Positions 4,259-64,000 of a stretch of DNA of 64,000 nt are shown here, piece by piece. The stretch is from an uncultured Verrucomicrobia subdivision 3 bacterium. GTDB taxonomy: Bacteria > Verrucomicrobiota > Verrucomicrobiia > Limisphaerales > UBA11358. Positions within the stretch are counted from its first letter, which is position 1. Every line of letters begins with the position of its first letter. The position numbers were made by a program, and so were the translations under genes. The notes beneath the pieces are model-generated. The model was not told the DNA's origin. It was given only the letters and a program-made list of their open reading frames with translations, and ran no database searches. The stretch is from the NCBI GenBank assembly GCA_903875465.1, contig CAIQWB010000102.1:12167-76166 (forward strand), in the 5' to 3' direction.

Positions 4259-4263
4259 GGGAA

Positions 4264-5835: not shown

Positions 5836-5842
5836 AGTGCAA

Positions 5843-6787: not shown

Positions 6788-6976
6788 AGGAAACTATTAA
6801 ATGGTTTTTGCCACTAATGTAAAGCGGCGGACGGTTACGTTATTAGTGCGAGGGAGTGAGCACTTGGGGAAGTTTTATCGGGAACGGCAGGCAAATTTAG
6901 AATCCAAACGTTATAGTAACAGCGGTTTACGTAAAAACCGTTGTGACGGTGGGGGGATTGCGTTTAGAGTGGGGCA

Positions 6977-8625: not shown

Positions 8626-8639
8626 CCAAAAGAAATGAT

Positions 8640-10944: not shown

Positions 10945-11979
10945 TCACATGCCGTTCAGGACATCCACCATGGCCCGCAACCGGCCATAACCCCGGCGAT
11001 TAAAATGGAAGGCGATGCGCGCCAGTTCCAAGTGGTCGCCATCCTCGATTTCCTCCGCGCTGGGCGGCACTACTGCAATCCGGCCTTCGGTCACCAATTC
11101 GGCGAAATCATCATTCAAGGCGGCAATGGCGGATTCGGAGGGTGCGTTTTTGAGGCGGATGACGAGTTGGTCCTGGACGAAGCGGGTGGAATGGTAATTA
11201 CGATGAAAGCGAGTGATGATGCGCACGGCTTCATCGGTGCTGTCCGTGATTTGGTATAAATTCAAGTCCTCGGGCGAGATGAGTTTGTCGCGCAGCAAAT
11301 GTTCGCGCACGTGCTTGTCCCAGGTTTTCCAAAACGTGCCGCCGGGGCGGTCAATTAGCACCAAAGGCATCAACTGGCATTTGCCGGTTTGCATGAGGGT
11401 GATGGTTTCGTATCCCTCATCCATGGTGCCGAACCCGCCGGGAAACAGCGCAATGGCGTCGGAATGCCGGACGAACGTGATTTTGCGGGTGAAAAAGTAT
11501 TTGAAAGTGACCAGCTTGGGGTCTTCGGCGATGATGGGGTTGGCGTTCTGTTCCCAAGGCAGGCGGATATTCGCGCCGAAGCTGTGCTCCAGGCCGGCAC
11601 CCTCGTGGCCGGCCTGCATGATGCCTGGCCCGGCCCCGGTGATGACCATGTAACCCGCCGCCACAATCTTGCGGCCAAATTCCACGGCCTGCTGGTATTC
11701 CAGCTTGTCCGGCTTGGTGCGGGCGGAACCGAAAATGGTGACCTTGCGTTTTTCGTGGTAGGGGGCAAACAGGCGGAAGGCGTAGCGCAATTCGCGGAGG
11801 GCGGTTTGAATCACCTTCACGTCGCCCTTGTCCTGAACGTCGGCCATCAGCTTCAGGGCGTTCTCAATGATGTCAGCGACCTCATTTTCGTTGTAGCCGC
11901 CCCCTTTGAACTGGATTAACTCGCGGATTTTGGCGTCCAGCACTGGATCACTGGAGATTTTTGGCTTCGGTGTTTTCAT
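10945..11979 (-). CDS. LOG-family (TIGR00730-type) nucleotide phosphoribohydrolase, long form
   Basis: GAGPGIMQAGHEGA and PGGFGTMDE motifs. Confidence 0.8.
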   Translation of the reverse strand: MKTPKPKISSDPVLDAKIRELIQFKGGGYNENEVADIIENALKLMADVQDKGDVKVIQTALRELRYAFRLFAPYHEKRKVTIFGSARTKPDKLEYQQAVEFGRKIVAAGYMVITGAGPGIMQAGHEGAGLEHSFGANIRLPWEQNANPIIAEDPKLVTFKYFFTRKITFVRHSDAIALFPGGFGTMDEGYETITLMQTGKCQLMPLVLIDRPGGTFWKTWDKHVREHLLRDKLISPEDLNLYQITDSTDEAVRIITRFHRNYHSTRFVQDQLVIRLKNAPSESAIAALNDDFAELVTEGRIAVVPPSAEEIEDGDHLELARIAFHFNRRGYGRLRAMVDVLNGM

Positions 11980-12089
11980 GGATTACCATTTAACCTTTCA
12001 CCCAGCATAGCGGGCATGGGTATTTATGCAACCGTCATGCGGAGGTTTGGCAAGTCACATTTTCAGCCAGCCATATTCTCACGCTTGCG

Positions 12090-24114: not shown

Positions 24115-27100
24115 TTAATTGACCAGTTGCAGGCGGTAGTAGCGCTGGGGGGAACCGCCAAAGTTGTTGGTCAGGGTCAGGGCTCCGCCGGTGCCGGTAA
24201 CGGGATTGCCCAGCGGCGTCCAGGCGGGGGCGGTCAAATCATCCTTGTATTGGAGCTGGTAGATTTGTCCGGCCACACCGGGCCAGTTCAGGAAGAGGTT
24301 GGTGCCGCTGGTTTGGATCGTGAGGGGCACGGCTTGCGGCACGCTGGCCGAGAAACTGAAGTTATCCAAGCCCAACCCCTGGGCTTTGCCCGACGAATCC
24401 GGCATCTGCCACACCAGCCACAATGCCGCTCCCGGCGGCCAGTTGGTGATGGCTTGGTTTAGCACCGTGAGGTTGGTCTGGTTCAGTGTCGCGGTGCCAT
24501 CCACGGGCACACCGCCAACGGCGGTTCCCACCGTGGGGAGGTTCACGTTCAAAGCTGGCACAAATGCCGTCGCTCCCAGAGGGAAGGTGGCGGTCGCGGT
24601 GGGATCGACGAAATAATAGCATTGCAAGGTTTTGGGCACATTGGATTGCCGCCACACTTCGCCAGTGAATTGCACATTGATCCGGTTCAAACTCAGGCCG
24701 GTCCCATTGATGAACCGCACCCCAAAGGATGTCCCCCCCGTAGTGCTCGTGGCCAGCAAACCCAGCGCCCGGTTGTCGCTGCCGGGCAGGCCGAAACTGA
24801 TCTGACCGCCCGTGGTCTGGTCGCCATCCGTGGCCCCAAACCGGGACAGCAAAGCACTCCGGCCATACCAACCGGCGAGGCTGGCAAGGCCCAGGCCGCC
24901 ATTGCCGCCGCTGGCCAGGGCCGGATAGGCAAAGTCGTACGGATCAGCCAGGGAATACGTCACGCTGCCAATGGTCACCGGGTTCGCGGTATTCACTGAC
25001 GTCGCACCGGGATTCGGCAGTGAATCAAAGGTTTGGGTGTAAACCAAACCCGGCTGCGCGTAATAAACATAAGAGGGAGGCGGGGTGCTGCTGGCATTGT
25101 TGGAGGCTCCAGGCGTGGCGGCGAACAATTCCTCGCGCACAAAGCTTTGCCCGTCCGGCACGGAACCGTAGGCGTCATTGGGACCGATATTGTGGTAATT
25201 CACATAATCCAGCACTTCAATCCGTCCGTTGGTAGCGAGCCGGGTCAAGGCCAGGGAACCAGTGGCGCCTGGCAAGGCAAAGCTCGTGTGCAGTTCATTC
25301 GTCGTGGACAGGTTGGTGAGTCCATCCGCGAAGATGACTTTGAACTGACCGGCACCGATCACGGCGTTGCCGGGGAAAGCCCATTGCAAAAGGTTGGTGT
25401 AATTATTGGCCAGATACAGGCTGTTCAGCGAAAGGGTATTGGTGCCGGGATTGAACAATTCGAGCCAGGCGGTGTGCTGGCCGGCGTGGTTGGTGACGCC
25501 GGTCAGGTTATTAGGTTGAATTTCATTGATCCAGAGCGATGGGAACAGGGTGAGGGAGGTCGCCACGCTGTTCGACACATCAGGGGTCGCCGCCGCCAAG
25601 CTAGATGTTAGCGGCGCGGGGTTGACCGTGGCCACCGTCCCGGAGCCAGACAGGCGCAGCGTTAAGGGACCGCCATTCGTGCTCGGCAAGTACCAATAGC
25701 TGAGGGTGTAGGTGCCATTGGGTGTGGCTGCGGGGCTCATGATTTGCCAGATGGCACTGCTCTGCGTGGTGCCGGGACTGCTGGCAATCACGTGCAAACT
25801 CGCTTTACCTCCGTGCCTGACCGCCGTGCTCAACACGGAACCGGAAAGATTGGGTGAAACCGTCCAGGGACCGGGAAACCCGGATTCAAAATCCCCGTCG
25901 GACAAGAGGTTCGCGCCCACTCCCGCCACACTGCCGGCAACAAATTGCACGTCATCCACATACACGTCCCCGGCGGACTGCAAATAAATGTAAAACAAAG
26001 AGGACGACGCCGTGCCTGTCACCGTCACATAGGTCCACTGGGGCAGGCTGTTCGCACCGGGGAGCACGGTAGTCCAGTTACCCGCGCGCCAATTGTCCTG
26101 GAGCGGGTCGATGAGTTGCAATGAGGCTCCGGCTGCGGTGGCGGTGGCCGGCCAGGGAGCTGCGCTGTCGTATTGCACGGCGCTCACCATGAGATTACTG
26201 GTGCTGCTGCCACCAGGGCGCACCAGGGAAAGCAATTGCGGCGGTTGCAAGGTGCCGCTGAAGAGATCGAACACTGGATTGGTGGCCCCGTAAGCCGCGG
26301 CAAAGGCGGGGCCATTGGCTGCAAGAACCAGGAAATTTGTCGGGGCCAGGAGTGAGCCATTGGGGAAGGTGTAGTTTAACCCGCCAATTTGCCAGCCGGA
26401 CAGGTCGAATGTCGTGTTGGTTGAGTTGTTGTATAGTTCGACATATTGGGCGTTGCCGACCGATGGGGCGTACATGATTTCGTTGATCACCACCTGTCCC
26501 GCAGGCGAGGCATTGGTGCCGCTGTATACGACATTTACATTGCCAATATCACCCGCGATGGGCTGATTGTTTTTATCGATCCCAGCCACATTGATCTGGT
26601 TGGTGCCCACTTTGAGCGGCACCGTGGCCTGCCAGGCAGTCAGGGAGGTCCAGGTGAGGGGGTAGGCCGCGCCATTGATCCAAACAGCAGACACGTTTAC
26701 GGGAGCCACGCCGGTCACATATGCCACATTATTGCCAAGGATAACACCGGGATTCACCGAGAAACGGGAGGCATTGACAGCCGCCAGTTGGGCCGCAATG
26801 CTGGTTTGAGCCTGGGACAGCCAGGGCAGGATATTGGCCGCAGGATCCTCCACGCTCAGACCATTGGCCGTGAACGCATTAAATTTGGCCGTCACCAGGG
26901 GCCGGCTCGCGGCGGGGTTCAGTGGTCCATTGACCAGTTCCTGCAAGGCGCGCCAGTACATGCGTAAGAAGGTGGGATTGCTGTAGATGGCCGACATGTT
27001 GGGATCCTGGTAATTCAGCGCGAATAAGTTTTGTCCCGGCCCCCAAGAGCCGCTGTTCCCCAGGACAATGTTAAAATCCCACATGATCAGGGAATACTTG

Positions 27101-30100
27101 GTGCCCAAGGCACCGATGTAACCATAGAGGTTCTGCGCGTTTTGGGCCCCGAAGGAGTCCCAATTGCCCGCCGCATGATTGGCGGCGAATACGCGCATCC
27201 AGTTTTCCATGTCGGCGATATTTTCCAAGTTGGCCACATAGCCGGGGGAGGTGGAGGAGTTGGCGGCATCAATCAGCGAAAAGACATTGGTAAAGTCGCT
27301 GGCGGAGCCGGGGGTGCGGCGGATTTCAAAATTGTAGCGATAGCGGGCGGGCTTTTTTAATCCCCCCGTCGTCGTATAAGGCAGGAGATTGCACCAGGCA
27401 TTGTTGTTAAAGGCCATGGTGGCCCCCGCGGGGAAAGGGGCCATTTCAAACCATGGCTGCATTTTATACAAGTAGCCACCGGTGTCATTCGGCCAGTGTT
27501 CTTTGACGACGTCACTGCCGGGAACCTGGGTGTCTTCCATCAAAATGCCGCGCCGGCTGCCATTTACATATACCGCCACGTAGCGCTTGTTGAGCCACGG
27601 CACCCCCAGGGCCCGCAGGAAGGTGGTGGCCAATTGCTCGCGCTGGATGCTGGTGTCGTCCCCGGGACCATTGCCAGGCTGGTGGATTTTATTAAAATCG
27701 GTTGCGCCCAGGAACTTGTCATCATCATTAAATATCCACTTGTAATGGCACAGATTGCCCACGGGGGAGTCAAACTCCTGATGGTAAGGGCTGCCGGCAA
27801 ACCGTCCCTGCATGTTGTAAATCACGCGGTTGCCGTTCACAAAGGTACCGTCATGGGCTTCGTTGCTCAAGTCGGACAGGCTGGCCCAGCGCGTGATATT
27901 GGTTTGGGTGAGCCACAAATGATACGCCCCAAAGCTGCCGCCGGGATTGATATCCCCGAAGACTATCGCACACTCGCGCACGGGTTCATTATTTAAGGAG
28001 CGCACCGTTGGAAACCGGGTGACCGCTCCACGACTGTCCGTGGCGGCCAGGTAAAAAGCCACGACCTGGCCGGCCGCCTGCCCGGGAATCGTGGCACTAA
28101 AGGTCCCGTCATGGGCGATGGCGTCCCCCCTCGTGGCGTTGTCGTTCATGGCCAATGTCGTATAATTCGCGGCTGGATCCAGCCGGTAATAAAGCCAGAG
28201 ATTTTGAATCCCATCCGGGTCATTCACGGTGGCAGTCACCACCACTGGTTGCCCGGCGGCGGGCAGGGGTGGATTATGCGTCACATTATAAATTGCCGGA
28301 CCGGCGTTGGTGATATAGGTGCTGTTCGCCTGACCCGGGCTCCCCAGATTATTCGGCACAGGCAGGGTTCCCGTGGCTTCCAGCCAGTTGCCATTCAAAC
28401 GCAACAATGGTTCCTGCCAGCCGTGGAGCCAGCGCGCCGCAAAACTCAATGTCACTGTTTGCCCCGCCGTCAGGTTATTGGTTAGCAAGGCGACCTGGCA
28501 GGAATTATTCCCGGTCCAGAGCCGGTCACTGTTGCGGATGTGGAGGGCATAGGTGCTGAGATACCCCGGGCTCTCCAGACTGGAACGCACCATGCAACCT
28601 TGGAGCGACCAGTTGTTCAGGCCTTGTCCGCCGTCAAATGTGGCATTGGCCACGTAATTGGTTCCGTTATAAAGCACCTGGACGTTATCCACCAGGCATT
28701 CGCCCGAATCGAGCAGGCCGATCTGGGCATAATCAATGGCGGGATCATAATTGGCCCCATTATCCAGCATTCCGGTATACGTGAAGTTGGTCCACACTGA
28801 CTTGGCGGTGTCATCGCTATCGGCCCAGTTATTGGCGAGCCGGTGATTCGCATGCGGGTCAATTAATTCCAGACTGCTGCCGCCGCCACTGGCCCACTGG
28901 CCCCATCGCCCGCCGGTTTCATAGGTGACTTGATCCTCCGCCACCAGGATGGTGGTGTTGGTGAACCAGGTTTGGGGCATGCTTAGTTGCACCAGCTCAC
29001 CATTGTGTGACAGCTTGCCACTGTAGTTGCCCACGGTATTGCCACTGTTTAAATTGCTATATTTGGCATATAAATTGGTCGCGTTCCGGGCCACCACGAG
29101 GTAGCGATTCGGTGCCAGGCTCACACTGGGAAACGTAAAGGTTACTCCCGACGTGAATTGCCAGCCCTGCAGGTTGATCGTGTTCGTGCCCTGGTTGTAG
29201 AGTTCGATGTATTGATCGTCATCATTGCCGCTGATCGGATCATACATGAGTTCATTGATGACGATGCCGCCAATTAAAATAGGGCTATTGTTGGTCCCGG
29301 GCGTGTTGGTGGTGAAGGCGTAGAAATCATTCGCGCCGTCCGGCCAGCGGCCGTAGGAAATCCCGTCCGCTTGGGCCCCAAACTGCACGGCATCCAAAAC
29401 CCGGGTGCCGTCGGGCTTGAGGAAATACAGCGTTGCACCCGCGCCGTTGAGCGTGAACCCCAATTGGGCCTGCGTGAAGGCCACAAACCCCGCCGGGCCC
29501 ACCAGGGTGCCGGTGGGCATTACAAATTTGTTGGTCGTCGGATCATCTGTCAAAATGCAACCGGCCAGGTTCACGGGATTGGTGCTGTGATTGTAAAGCT
29601 CGATGAACTGGGGCACGGCCGGGTTTTCCGAGTGCGGCAGGATTTCGTTGATAACCACCGCGCGGAGCGGGCTGGGGGTGTAGGGATCCAGTTGACCCGG
29701 CGAGCCGCCCGTGCTGTCACTGAGGTCCCACGCGCGCGGGTCGCCCTCGCCGTAGGTGGGGTTGCCAAGCACCAAGGAATGGCCAGTGCCCCCGGTAGCC
29801 ACCGGCCAGGGATAAACATCCGTGTAAGGCACGGTAAGCAAAACATTCGTGCGCTCGTCCAGTAACTCCAGCGTTTCGGCGTGTTTGAGACTTCCAATGT
29901 AGGGCCCCATAACATTAGTGATGCCATACACGCTGCTAATGTCAGCCGGTGCGGCCGCCAGCACGAGGTAACTGCCGCCGGGAATCGTGGTTCCCGCAGG
30001 AATCCGGTAATTCATGTCCGCGCACGTGATTTGGTAATTGCCGATGTCCTGAAACCAGGGGTTGGAATTGTAAATTTCCAGAAACTCCAGATTTTTTCCA

Positions 30101-32526
30101 TCCGCCCGGGCCGCGGGCTTCCACATGATTTCTGAGAACGCGATCGGAGTCTTCCGGCTGGTTGGTCCCATGGCATCATGGGGATTAACCGGGGTGGCCA
30201 GCAGCGCGCCCACCGCCGTGGTGGAATAATTCACAAACTGGGCGGTGGTGGTCTGACTTGGATTGTGGCTGGCCGTGGCCAAGCCGAGATAGATTTGCGC
30301 GGGCAGGCTGATGGTCAGTGTTCCCAGCTGGGTCCAGTTAGTGCCGTCGTAACCACCGTAACCCGTAAAGACATTTCCCGTGCGATTGAGCCGCAGCCAG
30401 GTGCGCGGGTAATTGACTGGGAAATTGCCGGTGGTAACGGCCGTGCCGTTGGTGGTGGCGCGGCCGGCAAAGCAGGCCCCGTTCATACCAGGGGTGGCCA
30501 GGGCGGCGGCAAAAGGGCTGCCCACGGCCAGGCTGGCCCGGGCCATTAATCCCGCCTGCGCCCACAAGTCAGACAGGGCCAAGCCCGCCAGGCAGACGGA
30601 AACATCGAAATTACCGGTGCGCAACTGGTTTTGATAATTGAACTGGTCGCTGGCACCGCCAATGTTATTGCCAGAACTGGTGACCGTGAGGCCGTTGGTG
30701 GCATAAACCACGGTGGAAGTGAGGGCTGCGGCGCCAATGTCCTGGGAGACAAACGGCGCGGCGGTAAAAGCCGCCTGGGTGTTGGTGGCGATTAAGTTGG
30801 GGGTGCTGGACCGGTCGTGAATATTATTGATGACAAGCACATAATTGCTGCCATAAACGAACGGAGCGGTGGCCAGCGTAACGGTGGCTTTGTCGGTCAA
30901 AACTCCGCTGTAAATGGCCAGCCCGTTGGTGAAAGCGTAATTACCCGCATTGCCAGAAACGGCCGCCACGGGCTTGGAGTAGAGGATGACCACGTTGGAG
31001 ATTCCCACATTATAAATGCCCGTGACGGTGGGGGGCACGGTGTCGGCGAGCACGGTGAGGTTGACCGGGGCGCTGGTCAGCGAGCCGGCGGGATTGGTGA
31101 TTACACAGGTGAAGCTCTGACCATTGTTAAGCGCCAGGCTGGCATTCGTGAGGGTGTAAACTGGCAGCGTGGCCCCGGTCAGCCGGAGGCCGGTGTTGTA
31201 CCACTGATAGCTTGCCGGCCCCTGGTTGGTCACGAGCAGCGAGAAGGTGGCACTTTGATTTTCCACCACGGTAAGATTGGTGGTTTGGGCATAAATACCC
31301 GGCGTGGTATTCACCCCGGTGCAGGGAATAAGCTGGGTGCCCGCCGGGCTGACGGCGGCCATGGGTTGTTCATAAATTCCATTAGGCAGTTGCCAGCGCA
31401 CCGCGAGATTTTCCCCACCGCCACCCTGCTGCATCCGTGCCTCCAGATAGTAACGGCAGCCGCCTTGCAAATAGATGGCGGGGGATTGCTGGCTCGCGAA
31501 CCAGGACCAGCTTTCCGACGACGTATAGGAGTCGACCCCGGCAATGGACACCATGCCGGCCGGGGATTCATTCGTGCTCAGGTATAGTTGCGACACATCA
31601 TCGCTGGCGATCCAAAAGGTGTAGAGCCCATTGGTGGGCGGCACGACAAACGTGCGCACCCGCTGGCCAAAGTTATTCAAGGGCACATTGATCTCGGTCT
31701 CGAAATTATTGAAAACATGGGTATAGGCGGCGGCCGGCGTGGCTGGCCAGCTGGGGTTGTAGGTGGTGTTGGTAAGGACGGCCAGCGTGTTGCCCACGCT
31801 GGCATTGAGGTTGGTCCACAGTTCCCGGTAAACGCCAAAGGTGGACGCGGCGAGGCTCACATTCGTAAACGTGGAGGTGTTCAGCGCCGTATTGTTATGC
31901 GCCGTCACCGCCAGTCCGGCCAGGACCACCCCATTCAATTCGATAGTGGTCGTGCTCCCGACCTGGGTCCAATTAGTTCCATCCACGCTGTAATAACCGC
32001 TGTATTGATCACTGGACCTGACCAGCCGAAGCCACACCGGCGGGTTTATCCCGTACACTTGCGCATTGGCCGAAGTGCCGCCGGTGGTGGTGCGGGCCTG
32101 GAAGTTCACCCCTTGGCCAGCCGTGGCATTCATCATGACATTGGCCGACCCGGCGCTGGTGTCATTGCGGAACATCACGCCCGCCCTGGACCAGCCGGAG
32201 CCTGGATCGGTATTTTGCACCCCGGTGACCAAGGCGGTGATGGAGCCATCCGCCGGGAAGTTTTGGCTGGCGAAGTTGCACTGGTCGGCGATATCCCAAA
32301 TATCTGCGCCGCCGCCGGCAACAGTCCAACTCCCGTTGGTAGCGGTGGCCGAGCCGGCAAGGGCGGGTGAACCAATATCCGTGTCGCTCCAACCGGGCGG
32401 CAATCCTGCTTGGGCCGATGACAGGGGGGCCAGCAGCAGAAGGAGCGCAAGCTGGGGAAGCGGGATAAATCGACGGGCAGCAAGGTGCTTGATCACAAGC
32501 GTGCAGCGCAGCAGCAATGGGTTCAT
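24115..32526 (-). CDS. Giant (about 2800 aa) secreted multidomain protein: two lectin/DUF1349-like domains, a PA14-like domain, an Ig-like domain, five lamin-tail (LTD) domains, a CotH kinase-like domain, and a C-terminal domain ending YYRLQLVN
   Basis: Signal peptide at ATG 32526 (MNPLLLRC...LLLLAPLSSAQA). Five LTD signatures (V)INEI.Y....(Y/F)(I/V)ELYN. CotH-like stretch FNKIHQPGNG...LGVPWLNKRYVAVYVNG...YLYKMQPW. PA14-like stretch GLYTFWIASDDVSQLYL. Confidence 0.88.
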   Translation of the reverse strand: MNPLLLRCTLVIKHLAARRFIPLPQLALLLLLAPLSSAQAGLPPGWSDTDIGSPALAGSATATNGSWTVAGGGADIWDIADQCNFASQNFPADGSITALVTGVQNTDPGSGWSRAGVMFRNDTSAGSANVMMNATAGQGVNFQARTTTGGTSANAQVYGINPPVWLRLVRSSDQYSGYYSVDGTNWTQVGSTTTIELNGVVLAGLAVTAHNNTALNTSTFTNVSLAASTFGVYRELWTNLNASVGNTLAVLTNTTYNPSWPATPAAAYTHVFNNFETEINVPLNNFGQRVRTFVVPPTNGLYTFWIASDDVSQLYLSTNESPAGMVSIAGVDSYTSSESWSWFASQQSPAIYLQGGCRYYLEARMQQGGGGENLAVRWQLPNGIYEQPMAAVSPAGTQLIPCTGVNTTPGIYAQTTNLTVVENQSATFSLLVTNQGPASYQWYNTGLRLTGATLPVYTLTNASLALNNGQSFTCVITNPAGSLTSAPVNLTVLADTVPPTVTGIYNVGISNVVILYSKPVAAVSGNAGNYAFTNGLAIYSGVLTDKATVTLATAPFVYGSNYVLVINNIHDRSSTPNLIATNTQAAFTAAPFVSQDIGAAALTSTVVYATNGLTVTSSGNNIGGASDQFNYQNQLRTGNFDVSVCLAGLALSDLWAQAGLMARASLAVGSPFAAALATPGMNGACFAGRATTNGTAVTTGNFPVNYPRTWLRLNRTGNVFTGYGGYDGTNWTQLGTLTISLPAQIYLGLATASHNPSQTTTAQFVNYSTTAVGALLATPVNPHDAMGPTSRKTPIAFSEIMWKPAARADGKNLEFLEIYNSNPWFQDIGNYQITCADMNYRIPAGTTIPGGSYLVLAAAPADISSVYGITNVMGPYIGSLKHAETLELLDERTNVLLTVPYTDVYPWPVATGGTGHSLVLGNPTYGEGDPRAWDLSDSTGGSPGQLDPYTPSPLRAVVINEILPHSENPAVPQFIELYNHSTNPVNLAGCILTDDPTTNKFVMPTGTLVGPAGFVAFTQAQLGFTLNGAGATLYFLKPDGTRVLDAVQFGAQADGISYGRWPDGANDFYAFTTNTPGTNNSPILIGGIVINELMYDPISGNDDDQYIELYNQGTNTINLQGWQFTSGVTFTFPSVSLAPNRYLVVARNATNLYAKYSNLNSGNTVGNYSGKLSHNGELVQLSMPQTWFTNTTILVAEDQVTYETGGRWGQWASGGGSSLELIDPHANHRLANNWADSDDTAKSVWTNFTYTGMLDNGANYDPAIDYAQIGLLDSGECLVDNVQVLYNGTNYVANATFDGGQGLNNWSLQGCMVRSSLESPGYLSTYALHIRNSDRLWTGNNSCQVALLTNNLTAGQTVTLSFAARWLHGWQEPLLRLNGNWLEATGTLPVPNNLGSPGQANSTYITNAGPAIYNVTHNPPLPAAGQPVVVTATVNDPDGIQNLWLYYRLDPAANYTTLAMNDNATRGDAIAHDGTFSATIPGQAAGQVVAFYLAATDSRGAVTRFPTVRSLNNEPVRECAIVFGDINPGGSFGAYHLWLTQTNITRWASLSDLSNEAHDGTFVNGNRVIYNMQGRFAGSPYHQEFDSPVGNLCHYKWIFNDDDKFLGATDFNKIHQPGNGPGDDTSIQREQLATTFLRALGVPWLNKRYVAVYVNGSRRGILMEDTQVPGSDVVKEHWPNDTGGYLYKMQPWFEMAPFPAGATMAFNNNAWCNLLPYTTTGGLKKPARYRYNFEIRRTPGSASDFTNVFSLIDAANSSTSPGYVANLENIADMENWMRVFAANHAAGNWDSFGAQNAQNLYGYIGALGTKYSLIMWDFNIVLGNSGSWGPGQNLFALNYQDPNMSAIYSNPTFLRMYWRALQELVNGPLNPAASRPLVTAKFNAFTANGLSVEDPAANILPWLSQAQTSIAAQLAAVNASRFSVNPGVILGNNVAYVTGVAPVNVSAVWINGAAYPLTWTSLTAWQATVPLKVGTNQINVAGIDKNNQPIAGDIGNVNVVYSGTNASPAGQVVINEIMYAPSVGNAQYVELYNNSTNTTFDLSGWQIGGLNYTFPNGSLLAPTNFLVLAANGPAFAAAYGATNPVFDLFSGTLQPPQLLSLVRPGGSSTSNLMVSAVQYDSAAPWPATATAAGASLQLIDPLQDNWRAGNWTTVLPGANSLPQWTYVTVTGTASSSLFYIYLQSAGDVYVDDVQFVAGSVAGVGANLLSDGDFESGFPGPWTVSPNLSGSVLSTAVRHGGKASLHVIASSPGTTQSSAIWQIMSPAATPNGTYTLSYWYLPSTNGGPLTLRLSGSGTVATVNPAPLTSSLAAATPDVSNSVATSLTLFPSLWINEIQPNNLTGVTNHAGQHTAWLELFNPGTNTLSLNSLYLANNYTNLLQWAFPGNAVIGAGQFKVIFADGLTNLSTTNELHTSFALPGATGSLALTRLATNGRIEVLDYVNYHNIGPNDAYGSVPDGQSFVREELFAATPGASNNASSTPPPSYVYYAQPGLVYTQTFDSLPNPGATSVNTANPVTIGSVTYSLADPYDFAYPALASGGNGGLGLASLAGWYGRSALLSRFGATDGDQTTGGQISFGLPGSDNRALGLLATSTTGGTSFGVRFINGTGLSLNRINVQFTGEVWRQSNVPKTLQCYYFVDPTATATFPLGATAFVPALNVNLPTVGTAVGGVPVDGTATLNQTNLTVLNQAITNWPPGAALWLVWQMPDSSGKAQGLGLDNFSFSASVPQAVPLTIQTSGTNLFLNWPGVAGQIYQLQYKDDLTAPAWTPLGNPVTGTGGALTLTNNFGGSPQRYYRLQLVN

Positions 32527-32843
32527 TAGAAGCGATCCTAAAGCAGCACGGCTGTTTTGTAAACTTTCCAAGTCATTGATGGAATAAACACAAGGCAAAA
32601 TGGAGATCATCAAATTATGGATTGAAACCCCGGTTGAATGCTGAGCAAACCCGAGCAACGACGGTGTGAAATAAAACAGCAGGGGCCAAGGGCCGGGACT
32701 TTCATTCCCGGTGACTGACTGGCTAAAACCCCGGGTAAAACCGGATGGAACATCGCAAAAAATGCGCGGGCATTGACAATCCGCGCGCGGAATTCTTCGT
32801 TGACGCACCCTGATTCCTGAGTACTATGAGGGCATTGACTTAA

Positions 32844-56393: not shown

Positions 56394-56470
<77 letters not shown>

Positions 56471-56754: not shown

Positions 56755-58767
56755 GTGCCCGGCCTGAACGATAAAATAACACCCGCACTCGTCTCCCTTG
56801 GGGGGGCGATGGTGGTGGTGTTTATCGGTTTCTTTTTGTTATTTACCTCCTGGGGGGATGCTTGGGTAACTGCCAGTTACGACAACCTGTTCCGTTTTGG
56901 CACACCGGCCGTGACAAATCAGGTGACTCTCATCCGGATGGATCAAGCCGCCTTCACAAAATATGGCCAAACGCGCGGGCAGCCCTGGGACCGGTCCTGG
57001 CATGCCCGGCTATTGAACCGTTTGGCGGATGATGATTGCCCGCTGGTGGTGTTTGATTCCTTTTTTCAAAACCAGCAGGATCCGCAAACCGATAACCAAC
57101 TGGCTGTGGCGATGCGCCGTTTGCGCCACATTGTCCTCTTGGCGAACCAATCGCAATTGGAACAGTCCAAATTTGTGGCCGATTCACCGGAGCTTCCCAC
57201 GGAGCCGTTTTTAAGTGCCGCACATGGGAATTGGGGGGTGGGGTGGGTGGATGCGAATGCCGATCTGGATGGGGTGGAGCGTCGGCACTGGCCATTTCCA
57301 TCCCCTGGGCCATATGCGAGTCTGCCGTTGAAGGCGGCGGAACTGGCCGGCGCGCACTTAAGGAACGAACCGCAGGAGCGCTGGGTGCGCTACTATGGTC
57401 AACATGGCTCTTGGGAAACGATGAGCTATGGGGAGGCCTTTTCTGTGCCGGCAAACTATTTCCGCAACCGGGTCGTGTTTATCGGCACGGATCCTGAAAA
57501 TAAACTGCCGGCCCGGGGCACTGGCTTAAATACTGACAAATTTGACACGCCTTACACGGGATGGACCGGGGAATCTTCCGGTGGCGTCGAAATCCAGATG
57601 GCCGAGTTTTTAAATCTCTGGAATAATCAATCACTGATTCAACCGCCGGTCGGGGTGGAAATCCTGATTTTTACATTGGCTGGCGCTGGCTTGGGCGGGG
57701 GGCTTTGCCGTTTGCGGCCGCGTAATGCGTCCTTGGTGGCAGCGGGCCTTTTTCTGGTAATTTCGGGAGCCGCCATCACCCTCAGTTATTACACGAATTA
57801 CTGGTTTCCCTGGTTAATTGTGGCGGGCGGGCAAATTCCTGGCGGACTGGGCTGGGCGCTGATCACTCGCCCACGCCGGAAAACCGCCTTGGCCCGGCTG
57901 CCCGCTGGAGCCTCGGTCCCGGAGACTCCCGGCTATGATTTGGTCCACCCACCCATTGGCGAAGGTTCCTATGGCAAAGTATGGCTGGCCCTGAACTCCG
58001 CCGGCAAGTGGGTGGCTTTGAAGGTGATTTATCAGGCCAAATTTCAGGACGACCCCATACCCTACGATCGCGAATTCAGTGGCGTGCAACAATACCGTGC
58101 CATTGCCCATCAGCATCCCGGTTTGCTCCAGGTGGAATTTGTCAGTGAAAAAGCCCCGGATTACTTTTACTACGTCATGGAACTGGCCGACTCCCTGGCG
58201 GCAGGTTGGGAAGCGAACCCAGCGAATTACAAACCTTGTGATTTGGTCACCGTGCGGGCCAGTTTAAAGGGGCGTCGGTTGCCCGTTCGGGATTGTGTCA
58301 AACTGGGCATTACCTTGTGCCAGGCAATGGAATTCCTTCATCAAAAAGGATTTATCCACCGGGATATCAAACCGCAAAACATTGTTTTTGTGAACGGGGT
58401 GCCAAAATTCGCCGATTTGGGCCTGGTTACCGGCATTCGCCCCCTGGATCAGGGGGGAACCTTGGTGGGAACCATGGGTTATATGCCGCCCCTGCCGGAG
58501 CGGCCAGGCACCGTGGCGGCGGATATTTATGCCTTGGGCATGGTGCTTTATGTGGCCAGCACCGGTGGCCTGCCATCGCACTTTCCCGAGGTGGACACGA
58601 CCATGGTGAAGGCCGAAAAACCACCCGATTTTTTCCCGCTAAACCACGTCTTTCTGAAAGCCTGCCAGCCAGTCGCTGCTGATCGCTTTGCCACCGCCGC
58701 CCAGATGGGGGAGGCCCTCGCCAAGGCGTTGGCAACCATGGAGCATTTCGGTCAAATGCCCCAATAA
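56755..58767 (+). CDS. CHASE2-domain sensor fused to a Ser/Thr protein kinase
   Basis: N-terminal TM, a periplasmic region of about 300 aa, three clustered TMs (the CHASE2 layout), then kinase motifs GEGSYGKVW, ALKVI, HRDIKPQNIV, DLG and GTMGYMPP. GTG start. Confidence 0.82.
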   Translation: MPGLNDKITPALVSLGGAMVVVFIGFFLLFTSWGDAWVTASYDNLFRFGTPAVTNQVTLIRMDQAAFTKYGQTRGQPWDRSWHARLLNRLADDDCPLVVFDSFFQNQQDPQTDNQLAVAMRRLRHIVLLANQSQLEQSKFVADSPELPTEPFLSAAHGNWGVGWVDANADLDGVERRHWPFPSPGPYASLPLKAAELAGAHLRNEPQERWVRYYGQHGSWETMSYGEAFSVPANYFRNRVVFIGTDPENKLPARGTGLNTDKFDTPYTGWTGESSGGVEIQMAEFLNLWNNQSLIQPPVGVEILIFTLAGAGLGGGLCRLRPRNASLVAAGLFLVISGAAITLSYYTNYWFPWLIVAGGQIPGGLGWALITRPRRKTALARLPAGASVPETPGYDLVHPPIGEGSYGKVWLALNSAGKWVALKVIYQAKFQDDPIPYDREFSGVQQYRAIAHQHPGLLQVEFVSEKAPDYFYYVMELADSLAAGWEANPANYKPCDLVTVRASLKGRRLPVRDCVKLGITLCQAMEFLHQKGFIHRDIKPQNIVFVNGVPKFADLGLVTGIRPLDQGGTLVGTMGYMPPLPERPGTVAADIYALGMVLYVASTGGLPSHFPEVDTTMVKAEKPPDFFPLNHVFLKACQPVAADRFATAAQMGEALAKALATMEHFGQMPQ

Positions 58768-58829
58768 TTGGGTGTTTTTGCACAAGCGTCCCCTCCTGTT
58801 CCGTTATTTAACCAAAAATATTTAATTTT

Positions 58830-58855
58830 TGAAAGAACCCCAAATTTGCCACGTA
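58830..58855 (+). promoter_or_regulatory. ECF-type promoter candidate: TGAAAG-N16-CGTA
   Basis: tttttGAAAGaaccccaaatttgccaCGTAtaag, 120 nt upstream of the small secreted protein gene. The 15-mer tttttgaaagaaccc recurs at 63986-64000. Confidence 0.45.
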
Positions 58856-58973
58856 TAAGAGTAGAGTTGCGCCAAACTGCAAGTCCGCCGACCGACTCAA
58901 AATTCTTGGTGAGTCCGGTTCGTTTTTTGGCAATGAGCGTAACTGAGATTTTTAAATTGAAGTATTATAAGCT

Positions 58974-59408
58974 ATGAAATTAATGACTAAATTGAATTGT
59001 ACCCGCCTTGGTCTGGCCCTGGCCATTACCGGGCTTGGGGTTGGTGCGGCCGTGGCCTCGGTGCCGGTCTTTGAAACCCTCTCCCTGACGGTTATCTCGG
59101 GCGGGCAGGGATCCGCTTGTCCCGGACGCTTTTACTCCTACACCAGCATGACCAACAGCGCTGGCAGCATTTGGATTACCCCTCCGGCCGGCACGACCAA
59201 CGGCATTTTGACGGATATCTCGGGGTATCCCGCGCCTTACGCCTCCGTAGCCACCGTCATGCGCAAGAGCGATATGATGACGTGGTGTGCCGGTAACTAT
59301 GTGGATTTTCCGGTGACCAGCGGGGAGAAATTTCAATTAAAGGTGTTTGTTGTCGCCGGCCAGCCGACCAATGGCCTGCCTGCGACATTGCAGATTCAGT
59401 GGCAATAA
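58974..59408 (+). CDS. Small secreted hypothetical protein
   Basis: Signal-like LGLALAITGLGVGAAVASVP followed by beta-rich sequence. No motif recognised. Confidence 0.5.
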   Translation: MKLMTKLNCTRLGLALAITGLGVGAAVASVPVFETLSLTVISGGQGSACPGRFYSYTSMTNSAGSIWITPPAGTTNGILTDISGYPAPYASVATVMRKSDMMTWCAGNYVDFPVTSGEKFQLKVFVVAGQPTNGLPATLQIQWQ

Positions 59409-59415
59409 GCTGTAT

Positions 59416-62400
59416 TTAGAAGCTGATGAGCAGCCGTGCCAGAAAGGTGCGGCTTCTCGCCATTTCATTGTACAGGTTTAAAGGTTCCAGTCGGTAATTT
59501 TGATCCGTGAGGTTGAGCACGCCCACGGAAAATTCCATTTTGCGATGGCAGAACCGGTAGCCGGCATAAGCGTTTAACTGCCAGAAATCATCCCCCGGCT
59601 CGGCCAGGGCAAATCCGGCATTGCTTTGGTGATACCATGCGCTTTCCAGAATGGTAAACACCCCGGATGGGTGGTTCCAATTGGCATTTAATTTGACCGT
59701 TTGTAGTACGCTTTCCAGGGTTTGATGCTGGCGAAAAGGGGCCTTGTCATAGCCCGGGGGAATTTGCGGGTAGCTTGCATTCAGCCTGGCTTGGGAGATG
59801 CTATATTTGGCCCCCAACACCCATTGTTCGCCCAATAATTGATCGACGCGCACGGCGGCCGTGCGTTCATGATAATCCAGCTTTTGTTGAAAGCCCAAGG
59901 GGTAAGTGGCGTAATCCAGCGGGGAGTCATACAAGGAAACAAAAGCCCCTTGCACATCAGAAAGTTTGGAATACAAATCTGCTGCTGATAATATCAGATA
60001 GGTTCCAGTGGGGAATTTTTCCTCCCAGGAAACATTAATCGCGTCAATGCAGGATCCGCTGGTATCCCCGGCCACCGAGGCGGGGATCAACCCTTGAAAC
60101 GCCTGGTTGAAACCCGCCACTTCCGTTGGTTCCAGCTGCGTATTTTGGGCGCCCGCAAATCCGGACAGCGAACGGGTATATCCCACCCGCATGGCCGTGC
60201 CGGCGGTTGGCGTCCAGACAAGTCCTGCTTTGGGGGAAATCTGGGCTTTGGTGCGGTCCGCTTGCACAAACGGCGCCGTGGTTGGATCCGCCGGTAGATG
60301 CAGTAAATCGTAACTGAATCCGGCGGTAAATGACAGGGGATCCACGATTTGCCAAGTGTGATATCCGTAGAGGGAGACATGATGATAGTCCAGGGTGAAA
60401 TCTTGATTCGTCACCAATGGCGCCGCAGGGAAATAGAAGGTGGCTAAACCGCTGTCATTCAGTTCCAGATTTTGATAGCGAACGCTGCCCCAATCGTAGC
60501 GGGAGCCCAAAATGGTGGTATGACTTTCCTGCTCCCACAGTTGTTGGAATTCAATGGAATATTTCTCGGTTTGAATTCTGGCGTTTAAGTTATTGCCCGG
60601 AAAAAAGACGTTGTTTGTGGTGTAAGCATCGCCCCGAATCTGGCCGATATATTGTCCGGCATTACTGGCATCAGCCAGACTGTCGGAAACCTGGCGGGAG
60701 GCCAAGAAAAGCGTCTGCACGCCCGGGCTCCAGTCATGGTGGTAACCCAGAAATAAATTGGGTTCCTGGGTTTCAGTGGTGCGATTGGCGGGGGATGCCG
60801 CTGATGGATGGTAATACTGGTTTACATCGCCGGAATCCACTTTGGCCAGTTGAATACTTCCGAACAGACTGTCATGCGGGGTCAGCTGCCCCTTGAGATT
60901 AATGTCAAACTCGCGCTGCTCAAAATCCTGATTCGCACGCTGCCCCGGGTCAAACTGGTAGGAAGTGCCGAAATCGAAAGCAAATTTGTCCGATGTATAA
61001 AATTCATCGGCATTCTCGGTCCACGCCCCCCGGCTCAGGTAGGTGGTGTCCGACACCGCCCCAAAACGGCTGTGGTCAAATAATTGAGCGTGTGGTTGTT
61101 CCGCCAGGGTGGCGGAAAGCCAGCCCGCCCCGGTGGGGGCCAGCAGGTTGGCGATCCAAAATTCGTCACCCGCCGGGGCGTCATAGCGCAGGTTGCTCCA
61201 CTCGGGCGCCCGCAACTGTTCATAACTGCCTGCCAGAAACAAATGGGCTGAATAATTGCCGTAATCCGAACTCACTGCCCGCCCGGCCTCATTAAGGCTG
61301 GTGTCATACATCCCGGCATCCTGGTAAATGCTGGCGAGATTGGCACTGCGCAGGGCACTGTCCTGGTCCAGCAACAATTGGGAGCGATAAACACTGCGGT
61401 TGTTGTTCAAGGCTTGGGATTTTTCCAAGTCCCGGATGGCCTGGTTAATCTGATTATTTTGCTGGTTGAGCAGCGCGGAATACAACCAGGGCGTGGGGTC
61501 GTTCGGGTCCAGGCGCCGGGCCTGGGCCAGTTCTTTGGCCGCGCGGGCATCATCACCAGTGGCCGTGTAAGCCTTGCCTAAATAGCTGCGCAACTCCGAC
61601 CGCTGGGGTTCCAGCGCTGCTGCCACCAACAGATCCTCCTTGCCCCCAGCGGGGTCGCCCAGGCGAATCCGGGCGAGACCGCGTCCCAGCCACGCATTGC
61701 CCAGCGCGGCATCCGCGCCAATGGCCCGGTCAAACCAGCTCCGTGCCGCCTCTGGTTGGTTTTGCTCGGCCAACACAAAACCCTTCAAAGCGAGGGCCTG
61801 GGCATTGGCGGGGGCCAGGGCCAGACTCCGATTCAACGCGTCCAGGGCGGCCGCATTTTGCCCAAAACTGAATTCCAACTCCGCCACCCGTTCCCAGCCA
61901 AAGCCAAATTGGGGTGCGTTTTTAACGGCGGTTTGCGCCAGTTTCAGGGCTTGGGCCAGGGAAATCTTGCGGTTTGCCTGGGCTTGTTCCCAATACGAAC
62001 TGGCCAGGTATTCGGAATTGAGCCCCGGTCCGTCCAGTCGGGCCAAAGGCTGGCCCTTGACGGCGGCGATCAACTGGCGCACGGCCCCCGCCAGGCGGTT
62101 GATACGTTCGGAATCCCCGGGGAGTGCTTCCAGTGCCGTTACGGCACCGGCCACTTCGCCGACCGACAGCAGCAACGCCGCCCGGTAGACCCGCACCGCA
62201 TCGGTGCGGGGCGCATTGGTCGGAAACTGCGCCAGGGCAGTTTGCAAATCCCCGGCGCGATAAGCCATCAGGGATTCCCCAAGCAAATGCGTTTCTTCCG
62301 GCGTCAGGGGCAGTTCATCCGGGTCAATCACCGCCGGATAATAAAAGCACCATTGCAACAAATTATTGGCCACAAACCCCGCCGTGCGCACCGGTGCCTG

Positions 62401-62958
62401 ACCCAAATCCACCCCCGCCTCCTGGGCGTTCGTCAAAAGCAAGGTGGCCTGATCATTACCCAGGCGCACCTGACCATCAATGACCGACACCGTAGTGCGG
62501 TCATGATCATCCACCGCCATCACAAATTCAGTTCCCACCACGCCGGCCATCGCGCCGCGCGTAATTATCCGGATGCGTCCGGGTTGGTCCCGATGAAAAA
62601 AGGATGTGATGCCCCGAAGCAATTGCAAACCGGCATCCTCATCGGCCGTGCGGGGGGGCAAGATCTCCAACTCGGTCGAGGCACCAAAGGTGAGAATGGT
62701 TTGATCCGACCAGCGCACCACCACCCGGCTGTTGGTCTCGGTGTGAATTCGATCCCGCGGGTTTATTATTTGCCGGACCTTCGCGGGTATCCACGCCGTG
62801 CCATTCGCCGGCAGCACCGCCACCGACCCCTGAACCACCACAATTTGAATGGCCGGGGCGGGGACAGCGGCTGGCTGCGCCCGCAAAATCGCCCCGCTCT
62901 CCGCGACTTTGACCCAGATCGCCACTGCCAGCGCAAATTTAATCCAGCTTGTGTTCAA
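59416..62958 (-). CDS. Secreted FecR-domain / TPR-repeat / C-terminal outer-membrane beta-barrel fusion protein
   Basis: Signal peptide. FecR-like segment (RIHTETNSRVVVRWSDQTILTFGASTELEIL). Multiple TPRs at about aa 330-540. A C-terminal region of about 600 aa with alternating beta pattern ends ...VGVLNLTDQNYRLEP...FLARLLISF (terminal F). Confidence 0.75.
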   Translation of the reverse strand: MNTSWIKFALAVAIWVKVAESGAILRAQPAAVPAPAIQIVVVQGSVAVLPANGTAWIPAKVRQIINPRDRIHTETNSRVVVRWSDQTILTFGASTELEILPPRTADEDAGLQLLRGITSFFHRDQPGRIRIITRGAMAGVVGTEFVMAVDDHDRTTVSVIDGQVRLGNDQATLLLTNAQEAGVDLGQAPVRTAGFVANNLLQWCFYYPAVIDPDELPLTPEETHLLGESLMAYRAGDLQTALAQFPTNAPRTDAVRVYRAALLLSVGEVAGAVTALEALPGDSERINRLAGAVRQLIAAVKGQPLARLDGPGLNSEYLASSYWEQAQANRKISLAQALKLAQTAVKNAPQFGFGWERVAELEFSFGQNAAALDALNRSLALAPANAQALALKGFVLAEQNQPEAARSWFDRAIGADAALGNAWLGRGLARIRLGDPAGGKEDLLVAAALEPQRSELRSYLGKAYTATGDDARAAKELAQARRLDPNDPTPWLYSALLNQQNNQINQAIRDLEKSQALNNNRSVYRSQLLLDQDSALRSANLASIYQDAGMYDTSLNEAGRAVSSDYGNYSAHLFLAGSYEQLRAPEWSNLRYDAPAGDEFWIANLLAPTGAGWLSATLAEQPHAQLFDHSRFGAVSDTTYLSRGAWTENADEFYTSDKFAFDFGTSYQFDPGQRANQDFEQREFDINLKGQLTPHDSLFGSIQLAKVDSGDVNQYYHPSAASPANRTTETQEPNLFLGYHHDWSPGVQTLFLASRQVSDSLADASNAGQYIGQIRGDAYTTNNVFFPGNNLNARIQTEKYSIEFQQLWEQESHTTILGSRYDWGSVRYQNLELNDSGLATFYFPAAPLVTNQDFTLDYHHVSLYGYHTWQIVDPLSFTAGFSYDLLHLPADPTTAPFVQADRTKAQISPKAGLVWTPTAGTAMRVGYTRSLSGFAGAQNTQLEPTEVAGFNQAFQGLIPASVAGDTSGSCIDAINVSWEEKFPTGTYLILSAADLYSKLSDVQGAFVSLYDSPLDYATYPLGFQQKLDYHERTAAVRVDQLLGEQWVLGAKYSISQARLNASYPQIPPGYDKAPFRQHQTLESVLQTVKLNANWNHPSGVFTILESAWYHQSNAGFALAEPGDDFWQLNAYAGYRFCHRKMEFSVGVLNLTDQNYRLEPLNLYNEMARSRTFLARLLISF

Positions 62959-63145
62959 GTGTTGTTACCCAACCGCCGGGCGGGTTCGCCCCTTAGTTTG
63001 TCTCATGCATGATTAAACAAAATCTGCCGGTCGTCACGCCATTTTACCATGGCCTGGCCGGGTTTGTTGAACTCGCCCGAATTAGTTGCTGAAATACTTG
63101 AAATTGTCATTGCCAAAGGAAGCGCAAAACCTCATTACTTTTCCC

Positions 63146-63775
63146 ATGGGTGACCTGAGGGATGAATTAATTCCCACGCGAGCCTCCCTGATTCAACGCC
63201 TGAAGAACTGGGAGGATCAGGCAAGCTGGCAGGAATTTTTTGAAACTTACTGGCATCTCATTTATGGTGTGGCGGTAAAACGTGGTCTTTCCAAATCGGA
63301 GGCGCAGGATGTGGTCCAGGAAACCATGATCTCCGTCGCCAGGCACATGCCTGCCTTCAAGTACGATGCCTCCCGCGGTTCCTTCAAGACCTGGCTGCTC
63401 AACATGACCCGCTGGCGCATTGCTGATCAAGTCCGCAAGCGCATGCCGATGGAGCCGCCGCCGCAGTCAGGGGATGGATCTTCGCCCGAGGATTTTGACA
63501 GCGGTGGGCCTGCTAATGGCATTCCCCCCGATTTGGAACTGATCTGGGATACGGAATGGGAGCGAAATCTCCTGGAAGTGGCCATCGGCAAAGCCCGCCG
63601 TCGGCTGGATCCCCAACAATATCAACTCTTCGATTTTTACGTCAACAAAGCCTGGGAGCCGGACCGCGTGGCCAAAACTTTTGGGGTTTCGGTAAACCAA
63701 GTATATCTGGCCAAACACCGGGTGACCGAGCTCATCATTCATGAAGTGGAACGGTTGAAAAATGAGCTGATCTGA
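63146..63775 (+). CDS. ECF sigma factor (Planctomycete/Verrucomicrobial type) with no adjacent anti-sigma gene
   Basis: LIQRLKNWEDQASWQEFFETYWHLIYGVAVKRGLS..AQDVVQETM (region 2) and VSVNQVYLAKHRVTELI (region 4). The ORF track start at 63086 is also possible. Confidence 0.85.
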   Translation: MGDLRDELIPTRASLIQRLKNWEDQASWQEFFETYWHLIYGVAVKRGLSKSEAQDVVQETMISVARHMPAFKYDASRGSFKTWLLNMTRWRIADQVRKRMPMEPPPQSGDGSSPEDFDSGGPANGIPPDLELIWDTEWERNLLEVAIGKARRRLDPQQYQLFDFYVNKAWEPDRVAKTFGVSVNQVYLAKHRVTELIIHEVERLKNELI

Positions 63776-63985
63776 CGTGTTTATGCCCCTTACTGCCCAT
63801 TTCGGGCCGCCGGCGGTACCCGCGCGGATCTAGAACCCTTTGGCGAATCGTTAGTTCCATTCGCCTCCTCTTGCCTGGCCAAATACGCGTAATTTGGCTC
63901 CTGATACCAGACTTCCCCCCCACCTCCCCAATTGGCTGGGATGATTTCCTATCCGCCTGCTCCGCGAATGAAAGAAATTTAATCA

Positions 63986-64000
63986 TTTTTGAAAGAACCC
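63986..64000 (+). promoter_or_regulatory. Second, window-truncated copy of the tttttgaaagaaccc motif
   Basis: Identical 15-mer preceded by atttaat, as at 58819. The -10 part lies beyond the window. Confidence 0.35.

Follow-up and report, generated by a model that had tools for sequence, protein, structure and literature searches.

Described systems and the locus examined

Several groups of extracytoplasmic function (ECF) sigma factors, namely ECF43, ECF59-62, ECF217 and ECF283, are linked to protein kinases and have no anti-sigma factor; the examples of ECF59-62 and ECF217 come from Planctomycetes (PMC7826278). In ECF43, the sigma factor EcfP of Vibrio parahaemolyticus is phosphorylated by the kinase PknT in its sigma-2.2 region (PMC8999054), and EcfK of Xanthomonas citri is phosphorylated by PknS at T51 as well as in the linker, in which T106 is critical (PMC13147305). 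These proteins lack the acidic DxxD motif, carry QTTA or STTA instead and gain the charge by phosphorylation (PMC8999054, PMC13147305); the kinase-linked groups other than ECF43 retain a DAED-like motif (PMC8999054). Near the sigma genes of a further group, ECF267 with 28 proteobacterial members, both a conserved protein kinase and a TPR-containing FecR-like protein are described. The regulation of ECF267 is called unclear, and the FecR-like protein was interpreted as a possible anti-sigma factor (PMC7826278). On the sensory side, CHASE2 proteins of Campylobacterota cluster with FecR-domain and TPR proteins (PMC9239204), in Burkholderia a CHASE2 histidine kinase is found with a LysM-FecR protein (PMC5192318), and signal perception by the CHASE2 cyclases of S. 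meliloti depends on NsrA, an outer-membrane barrel protein (PMC13001267). A ligand of CHASE2 domains is not reported in this literature. Here we describe a locus that joins both themes, kinase-linked ECF sigma factors and CHASE2-FecR clusters, each of which has been published already, and that adds to them a FecR-TPR-barrel fusion, a conserved secreted partner protein and a defined promoter. It lies in a 64 kb stretch of DNA (contig CAIQWB010000102.1; in the following the window) from a member of the Verrucomicrobiota from lake water, whose DNA runs are lake and pond metagenomes; a search for RNA runs of this organism gave none.

We propose that five genes of this locus form a trans-envelope module, which relays an envelope signal to an ECF sigma factor, most likely by phosphorylation. 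To this reading we assign a probability of roughly 55%. Four of the genes and the two promoters are listed below with the basis of each assignment. The comparison loci that we fetched carry numbers with the prefix L, and L001 runs past the window end.

56755-58767, plus strand: membrane Ser/Thr kinase with CHASE2 and Hanks domains, 670 amino acids (Pfam, hydropathy, conserved catalytic residues, orthologues)
58822-58859, plus strand: family ECF promoter, -35 element TGAAAGAAC at 58830-58838 and -10 element CGTAT at 58852-58856 (matrix and comparative loci)
58974-59408, plus strand: small secreted protein, 144 amino acids, with signal peptide, two conserved Cys and a predicted beta-sandwich
59416-62958, minus strand: exported FecR-TPR-barrel protein, 1180 amino acids (Pfam, AlphaFold2 model, Foldseek, homologues)
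63146-63775, plus strand: ECF sigma factor, 209 amino acids (Pfam Sigma70_r2, NCBIfam TIGR02937), without adjacent anti-sigma gene
63982-64000, plus strand: first half of a second family promoter, cut by the window end (full site at 3957-3994 of L001)

Open reading frame (ORF) and gene calls within the window put the CHASE2 kinase, the small gene, the FecR protein and the sigma factor just where a preliminary description of this DNA had placed them, with a gap of 4.38 kb between the kinase stop and the sigma start; a second copy of any module gene is absent from the 64 kb. The ATG at 63146 is the sigma start used by public gene calls and by most homologues. Several public contigs that encode the same sigma protein extend past the window end, and on these the sigma gene is followed by an ORF of 81 amino acids and then by a convergent pair of genes for a PspC-domain protein and a PadR regulator. 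We found no recognisable anti-sigma gene on either side of the sigma gene in the window and on these contigs, which agrees with the orphan status that had been claimed for it. The grouping into four genes holds as far as these four are concerned. The module is, however, better read as one of five genes, since the 81-amino-acid gene behind the second promoter has to be counted as well.

Linkage of the genes and a shared promoter

The evidence that carries our proposal is first of all the linkage of sigma factor and kinase, which the preliminary description had expected to see in relatives. We searched 80 loci from species-representative genomes, all found via the sigma factor, with the window's proteins and detected a kinase domain at least 33% identical to that of the window within 10 kb of the sigma gene in 61 of them. 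The kinase gene directly follows the sigma gene on the same strand in 42/80 loci. Of the 19 loci that lack a kinase, many break off at the end of the contig, and two (L009 and L015) show a CHASE2 fragment at the edge. The reverse test was a metagenome scan with an alignment of CHASE2 kinases. One pattern in it was the universal HRDIKPxN, so that generic kinases dominated the result, and 69 loci with such kinases (24-33% identical) were used as negative control. Close kinases (38-59% identical) were obtained in 11 loci, and the sigma gene is located directly upstream in all six that include upstream DNA. A sigma factor of this family is present in 0/69 generic-kinase loci, where the sole sigma match is 25% identical. 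Finally, the pairwise distances of sigma factors and kinase domains correlate with r = 0.70 over 60 pairs, a value reached by none of 2000 permutations, although shared ancestry contributes to it. Because these distances correlate, sequence comparison indicates that the sigma-kinase pairs are inherited as units.

The sensor domains vary among the 53 partner kinases, with WD40 propellers in 21 of them and CHASE2 in the window's clade, so that what stays constant is the pairing of the kinase domain with the sigma factor. Orthologues of the CHASE2 kinase were found in L006, L013, L014, L018, L059, L085, L165 and L168-L170, and they adjoin the sigma gene in three layouts: beyond the FecR gene, directly divergent (L018) or in one operon, in which the two genes overlap (L059; a FecR gene was not detected within this locus). 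Compared with the remaining loci, the window and L165 have the kinase gene in the opposite orientation. One may object that the FecR protein and the CHASE2 kinase are a sensory pair with another substrate, and that the sigma factor is a neighbouring regulator governed by how abundant it is or by an anti-sigma factor encoded elsewhere. What ties the kinase activity to the sigma factor is indeed sequence evidence, Hanks kinases often serve multiple substrates, and the family promoter stands before the sigma gene itself in L030 and L050, so autoregulation exists. However, the adjacency of sigma factor and kinase holds whatever the sensor domain is, it is specific to one kinase subfamily, the two proteins co-diverge, and the operon of L059 does without a FecR gene. 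We regard this alternative as very unlikely.

The linkage extends to the other genes. On contigs of sufficient length in the window's clade, the set comprises the sigma gene, a FecR-TPR-barrel gene that is divergent from the sigma gene in all orthologous loci, a small gene that runs towards the FecR gene, the CHASE2 kinase gene and usually a small gene after the sigma gene. The full set is present in L005, L006, L013, L014, L165, L168, L169 and L170, and hence on at least eight independent contigs; partial copies stand at contig ends in L009, L015 and L085. FecR-TPR-barrel and CHASE2-kinase genes occur together in L005, L006, L013, L014, L085, L165 and L168-L170. Since the flanking genes differ in every locus (urease genes, two-component systems, GlnD, DUF1501), the gene set is held together by selection, not by general synteny. 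The neighbourhood that had been grouped together in the preliminary description is hence conserved.

The second line of evidence is the promoter. From twelve sites in the window, in L001 and in orthologous loci we derived the consensus TTTGAAAGAWY-N13-CGTAW. The site at 58822-58859, located about 118 nucleotides (nt) before the start codon ATG of the gene for the secreted protein, scores 38.4 bits, compared with 12.9 bits for the next best site on both strands of the window. An ECF-like promoter had been suggested at about 58830; it is substantiated by this score and by motif copies at the same place before the small secreted gene in L165, L005, L006, L009 and L013. The exact 15-mer TTTTTGAAAGAACCC occurs twice in the window, at 58826-58840 and at its very end (63986-64000). 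Past the window end, this second copy is completed by CGTAT with identical spacing, ahead of the 81-amino-acid ORF, and the full site scores 41 bits in L001-L004. The position just downstream of the sigma gene is the most conserved one (window/L001, L165, L168-L170, L008, L010 and L018), and the gene behind it varies.

To 68 loci that were not used for the matrix we applied a threshold of at least 18 bits. Of the 25 matches, 19 fall within 600 nt of the sigma gene, a zone that makes up 11.6% of the sequence (P = 1.5e-13), and the 0.71 Mb of generic-kinase control loci gave 2 matches only. Because the motif is enriched near sigma genes in independent loci and scarce in the controls, it is a promoter type associated with the sigma family, an assignment that we consider established by comparison of the loci. 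In the window's gap between the FecR and sigma genes, no match of at least 2 bits was found, and the best site upstream of the kinase gene reaches only 9.5 bits.

Copies of the motif were also seen at other genes. One paralogue clade has a copy that points away from the sigma gene and stands before a very large gene (about 1965 amino acids, L026 and L043). The L026 locus covers about 3750-9650 on the minus strand, similar genes are present in L028, L035, L040 and L043, and the L026 product has a CSEQ thioester-like motif; judging from its sequence only, we take this protein to be alpha-2-macroglobulin-like. Two copies in L168 (31.3 and 26.6 bits; 1-3357, minus strand) lie downstream of the kinase gene and face a 60-amino-acid ORF together with an operon that encodes a CHASE3-PAS histidine kinase, a response regulator and also a hybrid kinase. 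A copy in L006 precedes a PAS hybrid histidine kinase. In L169, a second, ordinary ECF sigma gene (11959-12567, plus strand; 202 amino acids with r2 and r4_2 domains) is situated 1.3 kb downstream of the module's sigma gene, and a family promoter of 35.4 bits (11306-11343, plus strand) about 600 nt upstream of this second gene hints at a sigma cascade.

The proteins and a possible signal route

The 144-amino-acid protein starts with a signal-peptide-like N-terminus and gave no match to a Pfam or NCBIfam family. It has 13 close homologues and 109 representative clusters at 50% identity. Its AlphaFold2 (AF2) model is all-beta, with a predicted local distance difference test score (pLDDT) of 74.6. 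A confident match in the PDB was not obtained for this fold, only a weak jelly-roll or beta-sandwich likeness with a template modelling score (TM-score) of 0.3-0.4. Its homologues stand at this place in L165 and L168-L170 (40-63% identical) and in L009 (27% identical), and a secreted Ig-domain protein is found there instead in L005, L006 and L013. The protein is a conserved member of the module and, given its promoter, a putative target of the sigma factor.

The 81-amino-acid ORF after the sigma gene encodes a soluble protein. We considered it as an anti-sigma factor and rejected this candidate, which has no membrane segment and no family match and is kept only in close relatives (54% identity in L165); unrelated genes replace it in other orthologous loci. 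In L018 (3761-4093, plus strand) and L170 (11204-11569, plus strand), the promoter just downstream of the sigma gene is followed by a protein of 110-121 amino acids that begins with MISNERPSP. Its L018 copy matches the PurA (Pur-alpha) family of single-stranded DNA/RNA-binding proteins in Pfam (E 5.7e-12).

The largest protein of the module is encoded by the FecR gene. Pfam places FecR at residues 69-165, TPRs at about 360-520 and TonB_dep_Rec_b-barrel at 696-939 (PF00593, 30.5 bits vs a cutoff of 27), and the C-terminal residue is Phe. The AF2 model, built from 30 sequences, has a mean pLDDT of 68. It shows an N-terminal helix, which corresponds to the signal peptide, a low-confidence beta region for FecR, a confident TPR solenoid (220-562) and a barrel (631-1179) with pLDDT values mostly of 70-90. 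When this model was compared with the PDB by Foldseek, the top 50 matches were all TonB-dependent transporters, from E 1.2e-14; by sequence, the FecR region gave no match to solved structures. The Plug domain (PF07715) was not matched by Pfam at E up to 0.01, while residues 514-630 are of low confidence in the model and a divergent plug is possible. The protein is thus predicted to share the 22-strand outer-membrane beta-barrel of TonB-dependent transporters, as judged by Pfam, AF2 and Foldseek. In contrast to these, FecR and TPRs stand upstream of the barrel, where the transporters have the N-terminal plug with the TonB box, which we did not recognise here.

Among the scored candidates, 2748 belong to the family of this FecR protein at E up to 1e-10. 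Almost all of the best 120 of these 2748 are about 1130-1230 amino acids long and have the same domain set; sources name family members variously as PilF/TPR protein or TonB-dependent receptor. In L013, the FecR-TPR-barrel gene (6322-9884, minus strand) is split over several reading frames and is either a pseudogene or affected by assembly frameshift errors. On the metagenome contig L121 (473-1060 and 3146-4699, plus strand), a FecR-TPR protein 38-44% identical to that of the window lies about 2 kb from a kinase of another, generic subfamily (32% identical). Judged from this contig, the pairing of FecR/TPR proteins with kinases may recur outside the sigma family.

The 1180-amino-acid protein could in principle be mainly a TonB-dependent nutrient transporter of the sigma regulon, with CHASE2 sensing something else directly. 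The barrel does resemble these transporters (Foldseek E about 1e-14), some homologues are called 'TonB-dependent receptor' at NCBI, and the family promoter precedes the FecR gene in L012 and L014. Yet Pfam finds no plug, the N-terminal 600 residues consist of FecR and TPRs, which are protein-interaction modules, the window's FecR gene lacks the family promoter, and CHASE2-FecR linkage recurs in unrelated phyla with other output domains. Among the alternatives that we weighed, this is the least probable. We prefer to regard the protein as the putative outer-membrane sensor partner of CHASE2.

A second question is whether the protein could control the sigma factor itself. Its FecR domain starts at residue 69 behind the signal-peptide-like N-terminus, and the orthologues likewise have signal peptides; Pfam, the AF2 model and hydropathy revealed no anti-sigma family match, no cytoplasmic domain and no internal membrane helix. 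Because of the signal peptides and because the cytoplasmic anti-sigma domain and the membrane helix are both missing, it cannot act as a FecR-type anti-sigma factor, and we rejected this assignment. Compared by description only, the neighbourhood of sigma factor, FecR/TPR protein and kinase is like that of ECF267; the signal peptide, the outer-membrane barrel and the lack of an anti-sigma domain set the window's FecR protein apart from the interpretation given there. With FecA-FecR-FecI the module shares a TonB-receptor-like outer-membrane barrel, a periplasmic FecR domain and an ECF sigma factor as output. Here, however, FecR is fused to the barrel and is not part of an inner-membrane anti-sigma factor with its domain and membrane helix, transfer across the inner membrane would run through the CHASE2 kinase, and the sigma factor scores above cutoff only for the generic sigma70-ECF model. 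Closest on the sensory side are the published CHASE2 clusters, in which the gene for an inner-membrane CHASE2 protein is likewise accompanied by one for an exported partner with a FecR domain, TPRs or an outer-membrane barrel; they back the frequent co-occurrence of CHASE2 and FecR that had been mentioned in the preliminary description (PMC5192318, PMC9239204). The module differs from these clusters in its output, a Hanks kinase with an ECF sigma factor instead of a cyclase or histidine kinase, and in the fusion of FecR, TPRs and barrel in one protein.

The kinase has a CHASE2 domain at residues 24-310 (Pfam, E 8.5e-28) and a Pkinase domain at 400-611 (E 3.7e-25). Because hydropathy shows one N-terminal membrane segment before CHASE2 and at least two more after it, CHASE2 (about residues 34-298, between the membrane segments) is predicted to be periplasmic and the C-terminal Hanks domain (about 395-660) cytoplasmic. 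In the alignment of the 53 partner kinases, little or no variation is seen at the catalytic residues K423, H535-R536-D537, N542 and D554, and catalysis is therefore under selection.

The sigma factor itself passes TIGR02937 (sigma70-ECF) with 59 bits vs a cutoff of 42.9 as the sole NCBIfam model; TIGR02989, the Rhodopirellula/Verrucomicrobium family, stays below its cutoff (31.7 vs 124.55). It has 6022 homologues at E up to 1e-5, the best 120 of which are 61-94% identical. The kinase-linked groups without anti-sigma factor to which the preliminary description had pointed are established (PMC7826278), and like ECF43 the window has an ECF sigma factor without anti-sigma gene beside a membrane Hanks-type Ser/Thr kinase. 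The sigma-2.2 motif, however, reads E52-A53-Q54-D55-VVQE (ExxDxxQE). Positions 52 and 55 are acidic in 78/78 sequences, and position 54 is Q or E in the relatives of this alignment and never Ser or Thr, whereas ECF43 proteins have QTTA or STTA and are phosphorylated there. Since the acidic motif is kept, the charge-supplying mechanism of EcfP and ECF43 cannot apply as described. The EcfP/PknT precedent that had been invoked is therefore sound in that activation of EcfP by phosphorylation is published, but it does not carry over in its mechanism. In retaining a DAED-like motif, the sigma factor resembles the kinase-linked groups other than ECF43. Further differences from ECF43 are the CHASE2 sensor of the kinase, its outer-membrane partner and the phylum, here Verrucomicrobiota. 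Candidate phospho-acceptors in the sigma factor are S/T49, which is 82% conserved and stands just before the motif, T11, S14, T60, S79 and T88, as well as S112/S113 in the linker, which is rich in Ser/Thr and acidic residues.

The acidic motif also opens the way to a serious rival, since the sigma factor may bind core polymerase alone. The kinase would then control it negatively or by binding, in the manner of an anti-sigma factor, until the CHASE2/FecR input changes, and phosphorylation would be inhibitory or secondary. A sigma factor that keeps ExxDxxQE for core binding need not be intrinsically inactive, the kinase gene holds the +1 position that is usual for anti-sigma genes in the 42 loci mentioned above, and kinase-linked groups other than ECF43 may work differently (PMC8999054). 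On the other hand, the invariant catalytic residues argue that catalysis matters, and phosphorylation is activating in the two cases that have been studied, EcfP and EcfK. We therefore judge negative control to be unlikely, although it has to be taken seriously.

In the signal route that we favour, the outer-membrane protein would detect a cue at or in the outer membrane, with its FecR and TPR parts facing the periplasm and its barrel in the outer membrane. The periplasmic FecR/TPR part would then touch the periplasmic CHASE2 domain of the inner-membrane kinase. In the cytoplasm, the Hanks domain would act directly on the ECF sigma factor, most likely by phosphorylating it, and would in this way replace an anti-sigma factor. 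The preliminary description had likewise suggested a relay by phosphorylation instead of anti-sigma proteolysis, and the sequence analysis supports this suggestion as far as it reaches. The active sigma factor would read the consensus motif before the two flanking small genes, which encode the secreted 144-amino-acid and the soluble 81-amino-acid protein. The genes for sensor, kinase and sigma factor are without the motif and are presumably expressed constitutively, for which the evidence is weak.

Several points weigh against this route. Phosphorylation of the sigma factor by the kinase is inferred, with EcfP/PknT and EcfK/PknS as precedent, and a contact between the FecR/TPR part and CHASE2 is suggested by gene linkage. 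The acidic sigma-2.2 region may let the sigma factor bind core polymerase in the unphosphorylated state, which fits negative control as well as activation. The absence of an anti-sigma gene covers the neighbourhood of the sigma gene, the genes downstream of which vary between orthologous loci, and an anti-sigma factor unlinked to the 64 kb window is possible. Moreover, the FecR gene could be output as well as input, given its family promoter in L012 and L014, and the secreted-protein gene is without a strong motif in L168-L170.

A more far-reaching idea is that CHASE2 in general is a docking site for FecR-domain partners and not a ligand binder. The 1180-amino-acid protein would then be a signal-only, plugless outer-membrane receptor, and the module a FecA/FecR-like trans-envelope relay that has been redirected to a Hanks kinase; this kinase would switch an ECF sigma factor by phosphorylation of a non-ECF43 kind. 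This idea is tentative, and we think it rather doubtful.

Surroundings of the module and its meaning

The left boundary of the module is a tRNA-Met gene (56394-56470, minus strand), beyond which the window encodes YHS, DoxX, VTT and TANGO2-like proteins that are unrelated to the module. To its right, the PadR regulator (114 amino acids) and the PspC-domain membrane protein (404 amino acids) are convergent after the 81-amino-acid ORF (L001, 4484-6044, minus strand). Because this pair is absent from the same place in the relative L165, it is probably outside the module. Consensus scans gave two further candidate features, for both of which the evidence is weak:

58760-58772, plus strand: short hairpin with a T-run behind it, at the kinase stop codon
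63041-63070, minus strand: sigma-70-like promoter candidate for the FecR gene (TCAACA, 18 nt, TAAAAT with TG)

The hairpin may be a weak terminator that parts the kinase gene from the next gene. Far from the module, ARAGORN reports a tRNA-Arg (gcg) at 4326-4421 (plus strand), which at 96 nt is unusually long for a bacterial tRNA, and a very long ORF of 2897 amino acids occupies 24115-32808 (minus strand).

The kinase-regulated ECF sigma factors that have been studied are two only, both of them ECF43, and outside this group the input signal and the logic of the phosphorylation sites are not established. The module described here is a compact system whose parts are all identified, in which a sensor pair (the outer-membrane FecR-TPR-barrel protein and CHASE2) and a dedicated kinase are combined with a sigma factor that keeps an acidic sigma-2.2 motif and with a sharply defined promoter that is fit for a reporter. 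From this system one could learn how CHASE2 domains receive their signals and whether phosphorylation can control an ECF sigma factor that is not charge-deficient. In addition, a likely role is assigned to a large family of Verrucomicrobiota proteins of about 1180 amino acids, which are now annotated as PilF/TPR proteins or TonB-dependent receptors.

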